Source of the DNA: a virus
Virus genome (UHGV): UHGV-0038722
Length of the DNA: 29,986 bases
Reading direction: 5' to 3' (one strand)
The notes beneath the pieces were generated by a model. The model saw nothing but the letters and a program-made list of their open reading frames with translations, ran no database searches and was not told where the DNA came from. Positions 15,668-21,335 of this stretch are shown one piece after another (the first letter of the stretch is position 1; each line of letters begins with the position of its first letter). The position numbers were made by a program, and so were the translations under genes.

Positions 15668-17083
15668 TCAACCTACACCACAAGGAATTGAGTAACTGGA
15701 ATAGTCGGGTTGCGCAGCCGACTCCGGGCAATGCATACACATCATCAGCGCATCAGCCAGGTTAGGAGATGGAATACCGAGCTTCTGCTTCATTTCGACC
15801 TTAGTCATAAGCTCCAGCTTCCCGTTATTATTGAATTTGCGCTGAATCTGCGTCAGTTCTGCAAACAGCTTCTCCAGCATCTTCTCGCCTATCGCTTCTT
15901 TGTCGAAACTCAGCATGTCGTCGGGGTCTGCATACTCACCGTGGACAACCGCCCGATATGTCAGATACAGCCTGTCAGCCAGCGCGTAATAGAATTGCGC
16001 TCGCTTATTGCGGAACACATCGCCAATAGTGCGAACGTTGTCGCCCTGTACGACTTCATCAGCCCATGCTCCGGCCTGATACGGTGCATCTTCATCGAAT
16101 GGCGATTCGCTGCCCTTAAACATCGTGGCGGTGATTTTCTTACCGGAGAATGCTTCCGTTGTCTGTCTGCGCAGCCCCGCACCAACACCATCACCATCCC
16201 ACAAATAGTGGTCAGCGCCGTCTTCAATAGCCAGCGAAGTTGCCCAGTCAGCACCTTCATTGATGTCCATCAGCAGGCCTTCGGCAATGCGCTTAACTAC
16301 CGAACCGTGACGCGATGCGTAACCTTTAGCATCTGGCCCTGTATCTGACGGGTCATGTGCAGAAACAACAGCGCCTTTCGCTTTCCATCCGAGTTTCTTG
16401 TGCGCATCGGTTGCGGCTTCAAGCCATTCACGTTTGATGATTGCCATATCACTTGCGCTCACTGGCTCACCAAGCCAGATGTGACGATACAGTGTCGGAT
16501 TTCTGCGTTTACACTCTTCCATCTCCAGACGGAGAACTTCAGGAAAATGCGGGTTGTCGGTGTAGTTCACTGTCAGCAGACAAATATCATCGGGAGGATT
16601 TACGACGAATCGCTGATAGGTATCGTCGAGTGTGTTCTTCGGGTTAAAGCTCACCCATATTTCGGAAAACGGCTTGCGGATGGTTGGTATCAGGATGTCC
16701 CATGATTCCTTCGTTACCGCTTCCGCTTCTTCCACCCAGCAGATATCAATGCCTTCGAGCGATTTAATCTTCGTCGGGTTGTTTTTTATGCCGTAGAACA
16801 TGAATTCAGCATTCGTTCCGAGATGACGAATCATTGAACGCTGAATTTCAAACTCAGCCGAATACCCTTCACGCTCGATGGTATCTTCAAGCAACCGGAT
16901 TACCGAATCGCTGATACTGTTTTGCAGCTCACGAGCGCAAAGTATGCGCACAGGCTGCCGACGCGCCGCTTCAACAAGCAGCCTCGCAATTGCCCATGAC
17001 TTACCGCTACCTCGACCGCCTTTGGCGACTTTGTAGCGATGCGCCTCAATGAACGGTTCAAAGATAGGATTAATCGTGGTCAT
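15668..17083 (-). CDS. terL: Terminase large subunit
   Basis: 471-aa ORF; Walker A KGGRGSGKS near N-terminus; overlaps terS by 4 nt; Sf6 gp2-like. Confidence 0.9.
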   Translation of the reverse strand: MTTINPIFEPFIEAHRYKVAKGGRGSGKSWAIARLLVEAARRQPVRILCARELQNSISDSVIRLLEDTIEREGYSAEFEIQRSMIRHLGTNAEFMFYGIKNNPTKIKSLEGIDICWVEEAEAVTKESWDILIPTIRKPFSEIWVSFNPKNTLDDTYQRFVVNPPDDICLLTVNYTDNPHFPEVLRLEMEECKRRNPTLYRHIWLGEPVSASDMAIIKREWLEAATDAHKKLGWKAKGAVVSAHDPSDTGPDAKGYASRHGSVVKRIAEGLLMDINEGADWATSLAIEDGADHYLWDGDGVGAGLRRQTTEAFSGKKITATMFKGSESPFDEDAPYQAGAWADEVVQGDNVRTIGDVFRNKRAQFYYALADRLYLTYRAVVHGEYADPDDMLSFDKEAIGEKMLEKLFAELTQIQRKFNNNGKLELMTKVEMKQKLGIPSPNLADALMMCMHCPESAAQPDYSSYSIPCGVG

Positions 17084-17505
17084 TTTCCGAATAGAGTGCT
17101 CATCGGTGATGTTTCAATCTGAATTGCGCCGCCGTCTTTGCCGACAAGCTCATTAGTTACCTTGTCGCCATACTTACGGGGATTCATTCGGGCCAGCGCC
17201 CATTTGCGGGTATCAACGCGAAGTCTTGCCTTTGCCACCTCGGCGGCATCAGGGATTACGTCGTCAGCAATTTCGAATATCTCTTCGAAAATAGAGTCGG
17301 CCCGAGTCTCTGTTGCCTTCGCGTACTGGTCACGAAACTCCTGATGTTCAGCCAGCCAGCGAAAAACTGATGTTTTGCTCGGCATTCCTGGGCGTTCGCA
17401 AACTTTGCGCAGACTCTCACCGGAGGAAAGCAATGCGCAAATGTCATTAGCCACCTCCGGCATATAATCAGAGGGGCGACCACCTTTCTTTTTCTCAGTC
17501 GCCAT
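17080..17505 (-). CDS. terS: Terminase small subunit (Sf6 gp1-like)
   Basis: 141-aa ORF; N-terminus MATEKKKGGRPSDYMPEVANDICALLSSGESLRKVCERPGMPSKTSVFRWL matches terS HTH domain from memory. Confidence 0.85.
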   Translation of the reverse strand: MATEKKKGGRPSDYMPEVANDICALLSSGESLRKVCERPGMPSKTSVFRWLAEHQEFRDQYAKATETRADSIFEEIFEIADDVIPDAAEVAKARLRVDTRKWALARMNPRKYGDKVTNELVGKDGGAIQIETSPMSTLFGK

Positions 17506-17584
17506 ATTGATTATTTCCCTTCTGCTTGCTTATCCCATTCATCGCGGAATTTGGATGGGTTGTCGAAACCTTGAGTTGCCATGT

Positions 17585-17764
17585 TTATGCTCCGGTGGTG
17601 AACAGGTCTAACGCTTCCTTCGATTTACGCACCGCTTCGAATGTGCGGATCGTGATATCTGAATTAGCGCCGCCTGACTGGAAGTGAATTTTGAATAGCT
17701 CAAGCTTCAGTTCGTCAGTGCCAATGAATTGAAATGCTTCCTCTGCAGCTGCGTTCTGGTTCAT
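17585..17764 (-). CDS. Small hypothetical ORF upstream of terS
   Basis: 59-aa ORF (hand-translated, below track cutoff), same strand as late genes; weak SD. Confidence 0.3.
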   Translation of the reverse strand: MNQNAAAEEAFQFIGTDELKLELFKIHFQSGGANSDITIRTFEAVRKSKEALDLFTTGA

Positions 17765-17931
17765 GACCAGTTTGTAAATCTCTAACTGGAATTTCTATTC
17801 TTCAGTCATGGGAATAATCTCTGCCATTGTTGGCTCCGTTTATCCGTTAAAAGGGATATCAGTTAAGTTATCCCGTGTAGGGTATAAGCCATTATCAAAG
17901 CCACTCTGTAGGGAATGGCTTTTGTGATGGC

Positions 17932-17957
17932 AATAAAAAAGGCCGCCTGAGCGACCT
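17932..17957 (-). terminator. Rho-independent terminator between lysis-distal accessory genes and packaging genes
   Basis: Hairpin (aggccgc-ctga-gcgacct on plus strand, one G-U pair on minus) followed on minus strand by UUUUUUAU. Confidence 0.55.
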
Positions 17958-17966
17958 GTTAGTTGT

Positions 17967-18137
17967 TCACAACTTCCATTGAAGGTCCAGCATGTCGAAA
18001 AATGATCCGCATTTAGGGGGATTTTCTATTCTTGCCCTCTCTTCAGCCGCTTTGTAATAAGCCATTGGTCTTTTCACACCATCAGCACCAGTGATGTATT
18101 CAACGCCTTCCTTCGGATCTTTGTTCACGGAAACCAT
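17967..18137 (-). CDS. Small hypothetical protein
   Basis: ORF track 17967-18152 uses GTG; ATG at 18137 has GAAGAGG SD; 56 aa; no family recognised. Confidence 0.4.
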   Translation of the reverse strand: MVSVNKDPKEGVEYITGADGVKRPMAYYKAAEERARIENPPKCGSFFDMLDLQWKL

Positions 18138-18327
18138 CGCAACCTCTTCCACTTGTTTATCATCGATTCAGCGGATGTCTTTCCATCAGTCCGCCACCAC
18201 AAAGAATCTTTTTTGCCATAAGGCAGGAGGTTCATCTTTCAGTGGCTGCCAGTGTTATTTCCCCACTTACTGGCTTGGGTTGTTCCGCGGTACTGCCGTA
18301 ATGCAAAAACTGGATTAACCTGCGAAA

Positions 18328-18858
18328 TCACACCATTCCGGGCAAATACATTTGCACTTCATTTGCCGCTCTCTCACGTGCAACATGAAGCAATCTTTTT
18401 CGCCCACCAACGCCCCACTTAGCCATTTGGCTTGCGCACTGGCTTATCGCTTTGGTTTCAGTATTGATGATGTGATCGATTCTATTCAGACGGGACATTG
18501 CGCCAACGCCGAGACGGACAACCGTTTTGAAAACTTCATAAACTTCGATTTCAAATTCCGGCTTAATCCATGCTGCATATCTGATTGCCAGAAGTTCAAC
18601 ACCCCACACACCTGGTTCTGCACCACCTTTGATTATTTTAAGTGGCTGAATTTGTTCCAAAGTGCTTTTTTGCACTTTGGCCTCCAGTGCTTTTATGAAG
18701 CGTTTTATCTGCGCGCTACGCAAAAACTGGCTTGGGCGCTGTTGCTCTGTAGCCTCTCCATTTGCAACTGCTGCTGCATGGAGATCGTTTAAGTTGTAGC
18801 GTCCATCCTCATCAACACGAACGGACACACCATTGACAATAACTGTTGGGTACTTCAT
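18328..18858 (-). CDS. KilA-N domain-like phage protein (accessory gene)
   Basis: 176-aa ORF with AAGG SD; N-terminal YNLNDLHAAAV...QRPSQFLRSAQIKRFIKAL resembles KilA-N domain; located after Rz. Confidence 0.55.
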   Translation of the reverse strand: MKYPTVIVNGVSVRVDEDGRYNLNDLHAAAVANGEATEQQRPSQFLRSAQIKRFIKALEAKVQKSTLEQIQPLKIIKGGAEPGVWGVELLAIRYAAWIKPEFEIEVYEVFKTVVRLGVGAMSRLNRIDHIINTETKAISQCASQMAKWGVGGRKRLLHVARERAANEVQMYLPGMV

Positions 18859-19003
18859 CAGTAATTACCTTTTAGTGATGAACCTTGTCACACAGGATTC
18901 CGGCCCACAGAAAGGTACCGATCACCAAACCGGCATCCTCAAGGGTCATCCTGAAAGGTTCTGTGTTCATAAGTCGCGCGTGTGAAGCGCGTTTACTGCG
19001 GAC

Positions 19004-19029
19004 ATAAAAAAGCCCCGCATCGCGAGGCT
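19004..19029 (-). terminator. Rho-independent terminator downstream of Rz
   Basis: Hairpin gcctcgc-gau-gcggggc on minus strand followed by UUUUUUAU. Confidence 0.6.
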
Positions 19030-19060
19030 CATTAAATGGACTTTGTGATTTGCAAAAAAA

Positions 19061-19498
19061 TTATTTCAGGCACTGAGTCCTGATGTACTCCTGCAGGTAG
19101 TTAACCTGCGCGGTTATCCTGTCTATTCCACTTCGGAGACGGTAATAATTGAGTTCAGCATCTGCTGTAAGTCTTGGGCTTTCTCCATCGCCCATGCTGC
19201 TGGCTCCGGTCGTTGACTTTGCACAGGTGGCGGAGACTTGCAGGCGCTTACGACCAGCAGAAACATCAGCACGGAGACTTTCGATAGTCGCGTTAGCATC
19301 AGCAAGCTCCTTTGTATATCTGGCATCGAGTTCTGCTACATCACGTTGACGTTTCTGCATGTCAGCGATAATGGATGCGGCCTTATCACGCTGCTCTTTG
19401 TAGGCGATGGCGTTATCACGGTAATGATTAACAGCCCATGACAGGCAGACGATGATGCAGATAACCAGAGCGGAGATAATCGCGGTTACTCTGCTCAT
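19061..19498 (-). CDS. Rz: Spanin inner-membrane subunit Rz
   Basis: 145-aa ORF, N-terminal TM, coiled coil; near-identical to lambda Rz N-terminus from memory; overlaps R. Confidence 0.9.
19123..19299 (-). CDS. Rz1: Spanin outer-membrane lipoprotein Rz1 (embedded in Rz, +1 frame)
   Basis: Embedded ORF; signal peptide with lipobox ...VVSAC, proline-rich mature region; start taken at internal Met MLTRL. Confidence 0.75.
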
Positions 19499-19971
19499 AC
19501 CTCAATCTCTCTGACCGTTCCGCCTGCTTCTTTGAATTTTGCAATCAGGCTGTCAGCCTTATGCTCGAACTGACCATAACCAGCGCCCGGCAGTGAAGCC
19601 CAGATATTGCTGCAACGGTCAATTGCCTGACGAATATCACCACGATCAATCATCGGCAAAGCGCCACGCTCCTTAATCTGCTGCAATGCCACAGCGTCCT
19701 GGCTTTTCGGAGAGAAGTCTTTCAGGCCAAGCTGCTTACGGTAGGCATCCCACCAACGGGAAAGAAGCTGGTAGCGTCCGGCGGCTGTTGATTTGAGTTT
19801 GGGGTTTAGCGTGACAAGTTTGCGAGGGTGATCGGAGTAATCAGTGAATAGCTCTCCGCCAACAATGACGTCATAACCATGATTTCTGGTTTTCTGACGT
19901 CCGTTATCAGTTCCCTCTGACCACGCCAGCATATCGAGGAACGCCTTACGTTGATTATTGATTTCCACCAT
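19495..19971 (-). CDS. R: Endolysin R (lytic transglycosylase), lambda R-like
   Basis: 158-aa ORF essentially identical to lambda R from memory ([51 protein letters not shown]...). Confidence 0.95.
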
Positions 19972-20278
19972 CTTCTACTCCGGCTTTTTTAGCAGCGAAG
20001 CGTTTGATAAGCGAACCAATCGAGTCAGTACCGATGTAGCCGATGAACACGCTCGTTATATAAGCGAGATTGCTACTTAGTCCGGCGAAGTCGAGAAGGT
20101 CACGAATGAACCAGGCGATAATGGCGCACATCGTTGCGTCGATTACTGTTTTTGTAAACGCACCGCCATTATATCTGCCGCGAAGGTACGCCATTGCAAA
20201 CGCAAGGATTGCCCCGATGCCTTGTTCCTTTGCCGCGAGAATGGCGGCTAACAGGTCATGTTTTTCTGGCATCTTCAT
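19955..20278 (-). CDS. S: Holin S (lambda S107/S105 dual-start class I holin)
   Basis: 107-aa [42 protein letters not shown]... identical in pattern to lambda S; Met1-Lys2-Met3 dual start. Confidence 0.95.
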
Positions 20279-20402
20279 GTCTTACCCCCAATAAGGGGAT
20301 TTGCTCTATTTAATTAGGAATAAGGTCGATTACTGATAGAACAAATCCAGGCTACTGTGTTTAGTAATCAGATTTGTTCGTGACCGATATGCACGGGCAA
20401 AA

Positions 20403-20432
20403 CGGCATGAGGTTGTTAGCGCAACCTCATGC
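20403..20432 (-). other. Stable RNA hairpin in the late leader upstream of S
   Basis: Perfect 11-bp inverted repeat ggcatgaggtt / aacctcatgcc with 8-nt loop; followed on minus strand by GUUUUGCCC. Confidence 0.6.
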
Positions 20433-20569
20433 CACCCGCTTTCACGAAGCCAGCCATTGCGCTGGTTTTCTTTTATGCAAAGCACACCGCACCGTAGCCA
20501 CAGCGGATAAGGTGATTATTTTTGTCTGTCTGGTATTTGGTTTGATGTGCTTTCAGAAAGGCCGTGCTT

Positions 20570-20711: not shown

Positions 20712-21335
20712 CTAACGTGTGACCGCATTCAAGATATTGTCTGCGATTGACTCTTCCTTGTGGCATTGCACCACCAGAGCGTCATACAGCGGCTTAACAG
20801 TGCGTGACCAGGTGGGTTGAGTAAGGTTTGGGATTAGCATCGTTACAGCGCGATATGCGGCGCTTGCTGGCATCCTTGAATAGCCGACACCTTTGCATCT
20901 TCCGCACTCTTTCTCAACAACTCTCCCCCACTGCTCTGTTTTTGCTATATCAACCGCGCGGCCTGTACCGTGGCAATCTCTGCATCTTGCCCCCGGCGTC
21001 GCGGCACTACGGCAATAATCCGCATAAGCGAATGTTGCGAGCACTTGCAGTACCTTTGCCTTAGTATTTCCTTCGAGCTTTGCCACACCACGGTATTTCC
21101 CCGATACCTTGTGTGCATATTGCATCAGATAGTTGATAGCCTTTTGTTTGTCGTTCTGGCTGAGTTCATGCTTACCGCAGAATGCAGCCATTCCGAATCC
21201 GGCTTGTGATTGCGCCATCCCCATAGCAGCCATCACATCAGTACCGGAAAGAGAGTCAGAAGCCGTGGCCCGTGGTGAGTCGCTCATCATCGGGCTTTTT
21301 GGCGAATGAAATTTAGCTACGCTTTCGAGTCTCAT
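20712..21335 (-). CDS. Q: Late antiterminator Q (lambda Q type)
   Basis: 207-aa ORF MRLESVAKFHSPKSPMMSDSPRATASDSLSG... matches lambda Q nearly residue for residue from memory. Confidence 0.95.
   Translation of the reverse strand: MRLESVAKFHSPKSPMMSDSPRATASDSLSGTDVMAAMGMAQSQAGFGMAAFCGKHELSQNDKQKAINYLMQYAHKVSGKYRGVAKLEGNTKAKVLQVLATFAYADYCRSAATPGARCRDCHGTGRAVDIAKTEQWGRVVEKECGRCKGVGYSRMPASAAYRAVTMLIPNLTQPTWSRTVKPLYDALVVQCHKEESIADNILNAVTR

Follow-up and report, generated by a model that had tools for sequence, protein, structure and literature searches.

Two candidate accessory slots between Rz and terS of a P22-like prophage, and a structured leader RNA upstream of the KilA-N gene that fills one of them

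Main finding

We analysed a window of 29,986 nucleotides (nt), the whole stretch given for virus genome UHGV-0038722, with attention to the interval of its late region that lies between the lysis gene Rz and the small terminase gene terS. This interval carries, on the minus strand, a gene for a 176-amino-acid (aa) KilA-N protein and a 56-aa open reading frame (ORF). Comparison with related phages and prophages indicates that it comprises two adjacent accessory slots whose contents are swapped independently, and not one module. In the explanation that accounts best for the data, and that we consider probable, the slots are independent, and slot A holds an intrinsic terminator (t1), a structured leader RNA and a gene joining a KilA-N head to an ORF11CD3-type tail, which would be expressed late and gated by its leader. 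The gene pair itself is ordinary, being one more filling of a known mosaic hotspot. What is new is the apparent kinship of the KilA-N protein with Rha and with Ant of Shiga toxin (Stx) phages, and a structured leader predicted to hide the Shine-Dalgarno (SD) sequence. The features are listed in Table 1.

Breakpoints and occupants of the interval

We compared breakpoints by blastn against phages UPF_BP1, ST104 and Gally and three Escherichia coli prophages. Breakpoints were found at 17906/18174 and 18301/19068, delimiting cassette A (t1, leader and KilA-N gene) and cassette B (the 56-aa ORF and a second terminator, t2) on either side of a 128-base-pair (bp) non-coding segment, which is common to phages of the KilA-N and Rha types. 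In place of cassette B, some relatives have 23 bp and others a Gp49_66 gene; in place of cassette A, Gally has a Rha gene. The occupants seen in slot A were a KilA-N, Rha or Tad2-like gene, or nothing; those seen in slot B were the 56-aa ORF, a Gp49_66 gene or a DUF551 gene, or nothing. In E. coli MS14385 slot A is empty and the small ORF is still there. The shared segment may serve as a recombination linker, and showed no significant RNA fold (z = -1.4). Slot A of phage Louie (locus L008, 639-1109) contains a 156-aa gene annotated as 'anti-CRISPR', whose product matched the Pfam Tad2-like family (Thoeris anti-defence 2) with E = 9e-27.

The KilA-N gene was present in 13 phage records, none of which carried the small ORF (0/13), and cassette B was present in one phage record, that of Gally, where it lies beside Rha. 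A 952-bp query spanning both genes gave a partial match in 1,130 of the 5,426 complete E. coli genomes, and the two genes were contiguous in a single one (APEC20/16). Among the matches listed, the E. coli alignments end exactly at 18173/18174. Cassette B was found in 23 of the E. coli genomes.

A sequence-only reading of the window had described the interval as a variable, moron-type slot filled by a single acquired cargo module. The first part was borne out, the Rz-to-terS interval being an accessory hotspot of P22-like phages with varied occupants. For the second part we weighed the possibility of one acquired moron made up of both the KilA-N gene and the small ORF, with its own transcription between the terminators and possibly expressed in the lysogen. 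This would agree with both terminators being real, with the interval being absent or different in related phages, and with the two genes being adjacent and co-oriented with no minus-strand terminator between them. However, a single module does not accommodate the distinct breakpoints with a shared 128-bp spacer between them or the independent assortment of the two genes, which are contiguous in the one E. coli genome and in no sequenced phage record. Nor does it accommodate the promoter search described below, or the finding that t1 goes with the KilA-N cassette in all contexts examined. We regard a single moron as very unlikely, and the claim that the pair is a unit as largely refuted.

Juhala et al., in 2000, are said to have defined a moron as a promoter, gene and terminator between conserved late genes. 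The genes studied here occur in some related phages and are missing from others, between flanking genes that are conserved, and each has an associated intrinsic terminator (t1 upstream of the KilA-N gene and t2 downstream of the 56-aa ORF). They share with lambdoid morons, of which the 'ant moron' (PMC2629481) and lambda bor are examples, the extra gene between late genes, the intrinsic terminators and dispensability for morphogenesis. They differ in that we found no promoter of their own, and in that the gene is preceded by a terminator linked to a leader predicted to sequester the SD.

Terminators and promoter search

The stem of t1 (19030..19010) has 9 pairs, 6 of them G-C, followed by TTTTTTAT (-15.1 kcal/mol, z = -2.7), and that of t2 (17957..17940) has 7 pairs, 5 of them G-C, followed by TTTTTTATT (-11.6 kcal/mol, z = -1.9). 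A terminator scan of 16500-20500 gave 9 sites against 4.5 +/- 1.9 expected, with t1 and t2 at the top of the list. Of 72 distinct homologous loci, 61 have a hairpin with a T-run in the 100 nt preceding the leader, and the stem sequences differ. In every context examined t1 is the 5' part of the KilA-N cassette, and not simply the end of the lysis cassette. As for t2, it is also found 3' of the DUF551 gene in E. coli NCCP15648, and 60 E. coli genomes match just the 3' end of cassette B (17907-17957 in most of the rows shown). The t2 region (17929-17965) resembles, with 97% identity across 37 nt, part of Enterobacter phage CobraSix that carries the annotation 'tRNA-Arg'. No tRNA was detected anywhere in the window by ARAGORN, and the CobraSix stretch is probably a shared terminator.

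A consensus scan found no sigma-70-type promoter before the KilA-N gene or the small ORF, and specifically no such site in the stretch from t1 to the KilA-N ATG. Before the small ORF there are two weak promoter-like sites, a number no higher than expected by chance. The pair had been read as bracketed by terminators. Both terminators are indeed real, but the flanking terminators do not make the pair an independent transcription unit, because no sigma-70-type promoter was found before either gene. No site matching the IHF consensus WATCARNNNNTTR was present near the cassette; the whole window contains 2, as chance predicts.

A conserved leader upstream of the KilA-N gene

The family of the 176-aa protein has members, 69-86% identical, whose genes occupy very different genomic locations. 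In a Plesiomonas prophage the KilA-N homologue lies between the endolysin and spanin genes; prophages of Klebsiella, Enterobacter and Serratia carry it between the genes for tail tube and tape measure. Each of these homologues is co-oriented with the surrounding late genes and preceded by a gap of ~200 bp, which is conserved in nucleotides from the terminator hairpin to the ATG across the unrelated contexts.

We collected 79 loci from many Enterobacterales genera and aligned 48 non-redundant leaders with MAFFT. The pairs of the GCGC hairpin, H1, P2, the pseudoknot and a weak loop anti-SD helix were formed in 83.3% of cases in this alignment, compared with 72.6% after shuffling. None of 500 shuffles reached the observed value, and slid partners gave 30-45%. 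In a covariance-model alignment of 70 distinct sequences, scored without the anti-SD helix, 92.9% of cells were paired as against 78.5% in shuffled alignments, again with 0 of 500 shuffles reaching the observed value and with slid partners at 31-44%. Across these 70 sequences there were 272 double-change cells versus 92 shuffled, and the covariation score was 0.409 versus 0.166. Compensatory changes thus exceed both the shuffled and the slid controls, as is expected of a structured leader in general. The pseudoknot, in which the P2 loop pairs with the 5' flank, was scored on the alignment from a covariance model built without it, and its pairs varied as AU24/CG24/GC5, CG25/AU19/GU8/UA7 and AU33/CG13/GC3. 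G-U pairs are frequent, which indicates that the sense-strand RNA is the structured molecule. RNAalifold on the MAFFT alignment recovered only the GCGC hairpin and H1.

The remaining helices, P1 and P0, align poorly by column and were assessed by duplex energy in each of the 70 sequences. P1, a helix of 10-14 bp, had an energy of -15.8 kcal/mol compared with -5.2 kcal/mol for shuffled sequence, and was lower in 70/70 sequences. P0, formed by ACCUUU with the SD sequence AAAGGU, had -7.6 compared with -2.7 kcal/mol and was likewise lower in 70/70; it also showed insertions of matching length on both strands. An anti-SD placed in the P2 loop was considered as well. It was paired in ~50% of cases by column with a moderate energy signal, and was rejected in favour of P0.

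In the window, the minimum free energy fold of the leader (-47.8 kcal/mol) is P0-P1-P2, with an unpaired probability of the SD of at most 0.02. H1 uses the 3' strand of P1 and overlaps the anti-SD. When H1 was forced, the energy was -41 kcal/mol, plus roughly -9 for the pseudoknot; the A's of the SD then became unpaired (0.96 and 0.68), and the G's only partly so (0.21-0.23). Taken together, covariation provides strong evidence for the fold of the leader, and its regulatory behaviour is a prediction from this fold.

The 170 conserved nt that precede the KilA-N gene could instead be a small protein gene (phrog_16173), or a promoter or operator acting as DNA. A 32-54-aa ORF is annotated there in phage UPF_BP1 and has its own PHROG. 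Moreover, a GCGC-N7-GCGC palindrome and an AT-rich stretch resemble an operator and a -10 element, and TATAAT occurs in several leaders. However, indels of 1, 2, 5 and 13 nt break the frame of the 32-aa ORF among close relatives, in the Klebsiella, Serratia, Enterobacter and Plesiomonas copies, and the helices are maintained through two-sided changes and the matching P0 insertions. The common G-U pairs would not be complementary on the other DNA strand, and there is no consistent pair of -35 and -10 elements. Compensatory substitutions together with frame-breaking indels argue that the leader is a structured RNA and not the annotated ORF, which is probably not a gene. We consider the protein-gene or DNA-element explanation unlikely, and note that the GCGC hairpin taken alone may be a DNA operator.

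The best sense-strand matches in Rfam (release 15) scored 9-17 bits, covered the terminator hairpin only and were far below the gathering scores. A weak match antisense to the leader (18952-19030, plus strand) was obtained with the Xanthomonas small RNA asX2 (26.5 bits, gathering score 70), which we attribute to a chance resemblance to the terminator hairpin. We searched the literature and met no account of an RNA motif preceding KilA-N or Rha genes.

A KilA-N head on a Rha-type tail

The 176-aa protein matched Pfam KilA-N (PF04383) over residues 9-113 with 64.8 bits against a curated cut-off of 23.8 (E = 7e-18), confirming the assignment made in the sequence-only reading, and has the expected APSES/Mbp1-like alpha/beta DNA-binding fold. 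Neither it nor the small ORF resembles a structural or packaging protein. The KilA-N ORF is widely annotated, and has been since phage ST104 (orf45).

The tail of the protein belongs to phrog_10441, which the Rha tail matches at 2.8e-6. When a profile built from diverse relatives was compared with the Rha family by hhalign, residues 105-176 aligned with Rha 97-171 with a probability of 95.8% (E = 8e-9). A first comparison with close homologues only had given a probability of 12.7%, and the alignment became convincing only once the diverse relatives were added. ORF11CD3 (PF10549) was matched by 8 of 9 full-length relatives tested (E 9.6e-6 to 0.04, one above the cut-off), and these relatives are 27-44% identical. 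Since phrog_10441, the relatives and hhalign all link the tail to ORF11CD3, the protein can be described as a KilA-N head on a Rha-type tail. The Rha proteins of P22 and Gally consist of Phage_pRha and ORF11CD3, and Sakai Ant of P22_AR_N and ORF11CD3, so that the 176-aa protein would be a domain-swapped counterpart of both P22 Rha and Stx-phage Ant.

No Pfam match to the winged-helix N-terminal domain Phage_pRha (PF09669) was found in the 176-aa protein, and BLASTP against P22 and Gally Rha was not significant (E = 5-14). A search of PDB sequences returned a chance match to TcaR only. The protein resembles Rha in slot, leader and tail, and is not a member of the Rha family. With the rha genes of P22 and phi80 it has in common the slot between Rz and orf80/terS in Lederbergviruses, an ORF11CD3-type tail and a similar size, and with those of P22 and Gally the upstream terminator and leader RNA. 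It differs in its head, in a tail too divergent for the Pfam model, and in that only Rha has a described IHF phenotype. The Ant of Stx2 phages (VT2-Sakai, 933W type) likewise has an ORF11CD3 tail and a leader directly upstream, and lies in the late lysis region. In contrast to the 176-aa protein, its head is P22_AR_N, and its gene sits between the endolysin and spanin genes and not after Rz. The experimentally studied antirepressor of Phi24B is a different gene, located before qut.

P1 KilA shares the KilA-N N-terminal domain. It differs in its length of 266 aa, in another C-terminal part, and in belonging to a C1-controlled lytic replicon operon and not to a late operon. Iyer, Koonin and Aravind, in 2002, reportedly described the KilA-N/Bro network of domain shuffling. 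A DNA-binding head with an interchangeable tail is the feature that the 176-aa protein shares with this 'Bro network', of which it is a member (PMC10111431). By analogy with Rha, it is most likely an oligomeric, sequence-specific DNA-binding regulator that is made late and is harmful if mis-expressed.

The leader upstream of other cargo genes

Covariance model R1 gave 79 matches. The model matched directly before the rha genes of Gally (115 bits) and P22 (101 bits), and before VT2-Sakai 'ant', between R and Rz (117 bits). R1 also matched before KilA-N+P63C genes and before two HNH_3 endonuclease genes. By blastn the leader was found in 368 phage records, mostly of Stx-converting phages (>200 records). 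P22 Rha, Stx-phage Ant and the KilA-N protein of the window appear to represent one cassette type, with a common leader, an ORF11CD3 tail and a location within or after the lysis cassette, and with differing DNA-binding heads. The leader is not specific to ORF11CD3 proteins, because it also precedes HNH_3 genes.

The two HNH_3 homing-endonuclease genes, each with the leader directly 5', are in a Yersinia P22-like prophage (L011, 2510-3240) and a Dryocola prophage (L064, 3664-4404). An Edwardsiella ictaluri prophage (L051) has tandem leaders at 2047-2185 and 2359-2503; the first is followed by an ORF of only 11 codons, which looks like the remnant of a lost cargo gene.

Some existing annotations look wrong in the light of the leader, namely the small ORF within it, the start codon of P22 rha and a missing gene in HK022. 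In P22 (NC_002371), rha is annotated with a GTG start (201 aa) that falls inside the leader (L007, 1076-1147; record 39575-39646). The covariance model and the Gally homologue place the start at an ATG at 1145 of L007 (MNELIANHDF, 178 aa). In HK022 (NC_002166; L107) a leader at 1536-1683 (75.5 bits) is followed by a 242-aa ORF at 1681-2409 that lacks an annotation. This ORF is located 3' of the lysis genes, and its product is almost the same as the KilA-N+P63C protein encoded at locus L013.

The prophage-encoded protein BstA of BTP1 is described as a defence protein that is active in the lysogen (PMC8585504). A related role for the 176-aa protein, as an abortive-infection effector of this kind, merits consideration since BstA has a KilA-N-like N-terminal domain and comes from a P22-like prophage, and since the Tad2-like gene of phage Louie indicates that the same slot can hold defence-related cargo. 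However, there was no match at E <= 1 to any PADLOC model (v2.0.0, in which the presence of a BstA model was unchecked), and none of the four small proteins had a match in PADLOC or NCBIfam. The 176-aa protein with its ORF11CD3 tail also differs from BstA (307 aa) in C-terminal domain, length and locus. A gene that sits in a late operon with no promoter, and that follows both a terminator and a leader pairing its SD, would be ill-suited to expression from a quiescent prophage. A defence role has, in our view, little chance of being correct.

A proposed mechanism of late expression

In all loci with listed gene calls the cassette and the late genes on either side of it are read in the same direction. 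Based on its position, its orientation and the lack of a consensus promoter, cassette A would be transcribed only within the late operon, by Q-modified polymerase reading through t1 and t2, and these terminators would block unmodified polymerase in the lysogen and in early infection. Intra-operon terminators of this kind have been noted in phage L. In the transcript, the P0-P1-P2 hairpin would constitute an OFF state, in which the SD is base paired; this fold is backed by covariation and by energy calculations. In an ON state, H1 stacked on the pseudoknot would use the same strands and free the SD. Both sets of pairs are conserved, and we infer from them that the leader may switch in response to a trigger. 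The KilA-N protein would then act late as a DNA-binding regulator, as suggested by Rha.

Sequestration of the SD has precedents: hairpins silence homing-endonuclease genes of phage T4 in read-through transcripts, and bistable expression platforms occur in riboswitches. The leader resembles these riboregulators in a hairpin that pairs the ribosome-binding site, in a mutually exclusive alternative structure and in its occurrence before HNH endonuclease genes. It differs in its specific fold (P0-P1-P2 with a loop-to-5'-flank pseudoknot), which has no Rfam match. It is quite possible, if short of probable, that terminator and leader together form an undescribed class of cis-regulatory RNA in prophages of lambdoid and other enterobacterial types, a bistable hairpin/pseudoknot switch that would gate the translation of potentially toxic late cargo (Rha, Ant, KilA-N, KilA-N+P63C and HNH).

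Several points weigh against our explanation of slot A. The loci of the RNA alignment were fetched through KilA-N homology, which biases the range of downstream genes sampled. The column-based test of P1 was poor (47-66% paired), probably owing to an alignment that is off register, so that P1 depends on the per-sequence energies. The two 5' blocks are similar in sequence, which may account for part of the H1 covariation. The proposed ON/OFF switching is a model, and Q-dependent late transcription is deduced from just the three features named above. A perfect TATAAT occurs immediately after the GCGC hairpin in some leaders only, and may mark an internal promoter in some lineages; the window has TATGAA there, and P22 nothing resembling a -10 hexamer. 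For the protein, ORF11CD3 (PF10549) gave no match at E <= 1 with either the whole 176-aa sequence or its last 56 residues. To our knowledge, no function is known for ORF11CD3, and none has been established for Rha beyond the IHF phenotype.

The rha genes of P22 and phi80 are late-operon genes that block phage growth without IHF, and are said to be regulated by IHF (PMC4936722). If terminator and leader do form such a switch, the leader could be the missing cis element behind the IHF dependence of rha expression observed 30 years ago, and would point to a trigger, perhaps a ligand, a protein or co-transcriptional timing. The leader is a testable handle on how such late genes are silenced and switched on, including whether IHF acts through it, and it is carried by many Stx phages, in which the time of late gene expression bears on toxin release.

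The 56-aa ORF of cassette B

The 56-aa ORF belongs to phrog_5425 (E = 6e-40). Its family comprises 17 clusters (61-98% identity) in which 20 positions are invariant, among them E10-I15 (EGVEYI) and V21-M25 (VKRPM), and homologues at 61-77% identity keep a length of 57-58 aa. Homologues occur in Yersinia P22-like prophages that lack the KilA-N gene, and overall the small ORF was seen in three late-operon contexts, always co-oriented with its neighbours. In another lambdoid phage (locus L013, 4001-4177) a homologue lies in the interval from Q to the holin gene, where the late promoter and its terminator are expected.

An ORF this short might have arisen by chance, leaving cassette B as a terminator-bearing spacer only. 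It had no Pfam, NCBIfam or PADLOC match and is unannotated in phage Gally, and the structure model was weak (predicted local distance difference test, pLDDT, 69) with no fold match, so that we propose no function for it. A chance ORF, however, would not be expected to maintain its length and the 20 invariant positions across a family, nor to have a good SD (GAGG, 5 nt, ATG) and a constant orientation in three contexts. The conserved length and invariant positions suggest that the ORF is probably a real gene, and we consider a chance origin highly improbable.

Layout of the locus

The late region of the window lies on the minus strand and is that of a P22-like (Lederbergvirus-type) prophage. 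The gene order on this strand is Q, S, R, Rz/Rz1, the accessory interval, a homologue of DUF2560/orf80, Sf6-type terS and terL. This order agrees with the context given in the sequence-only reading (lysis cassette, gene pair, terS region), and both terminators, the 176-aa KilA-N ORF and the ORF of ~56 aa were all present where it had placed them.

Table 1. Positions of the features in the window.
Feature	Position	Strand	Remarks
Q	20712-21335	-	
Rz/Rz1	19061-19498	-	
Cassette A (slot A)	18302-19067	-	t1, leader and KilA-N gene; from blastn breakpoints
Intrinsic terminator t1	19004..19030	-	5' element of cassette A; U-run to 19004
Structured leader RNA, ~140 nt	18859..19000	-	5' untranslated region of the KilA-N gene; conservation, covariation, duplex energies
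GCGC hairpin	18990-18976	-	Leader element
32-aa ORF	18872..18970	-	phrog_16173; inside leader; annotated as a 54-aa coding sequence in phage UPF_BP1
Pseudoknot 5' strand	18965-18962	-	
H1 5' strand	18961-18957	-	
Anti-SD	18959-18954	-	
P1 5' strand	18949-18940	-	
P2	18939-18929 with 18904-18894	-	
Pseudoknot 3' strand	18909-18906	-	
P1/H1 3' strand	18887-18878	-	
SD (AAGG)	18871-18868	-	
176-aa protein gene	18328..18858	-	KilA-N domain, aa 9-113; divergent ORF11CD3-like helical hairpin, aa ~105-176
Shared non-coding segment, 128 bp	18174..18301	-	Junction of both slots; common to KilA-N-type and Rha-type phages
Cassette B (slot B)	17907-18173	-	56-aa ORF and t2; from blastn breakpoints
56-aa ORF	17967..18137	-	ATG 5 nt after GAGG; alternative GTG start gives 17967-18152
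Intrinsic terminator t2	17932..17957	-	3' end of cassette B
DUF2560 (P22 orf80) homologue	17585..17827	-	Backbone gene, outside both cassettes
Sf6-type small terminase gene (terS)	17080-17505	-	

The DUF2560 homologue has an in-frame TAG at codon 11 (17795-17797, minus strand; MAEIIPMTEE*KFQ), where P22 and Gally have CAG (Gln). This is either a nonsense mutation that makes the gene a pseudogene, or the protein restarts at an internal ATG to give 59 aa.

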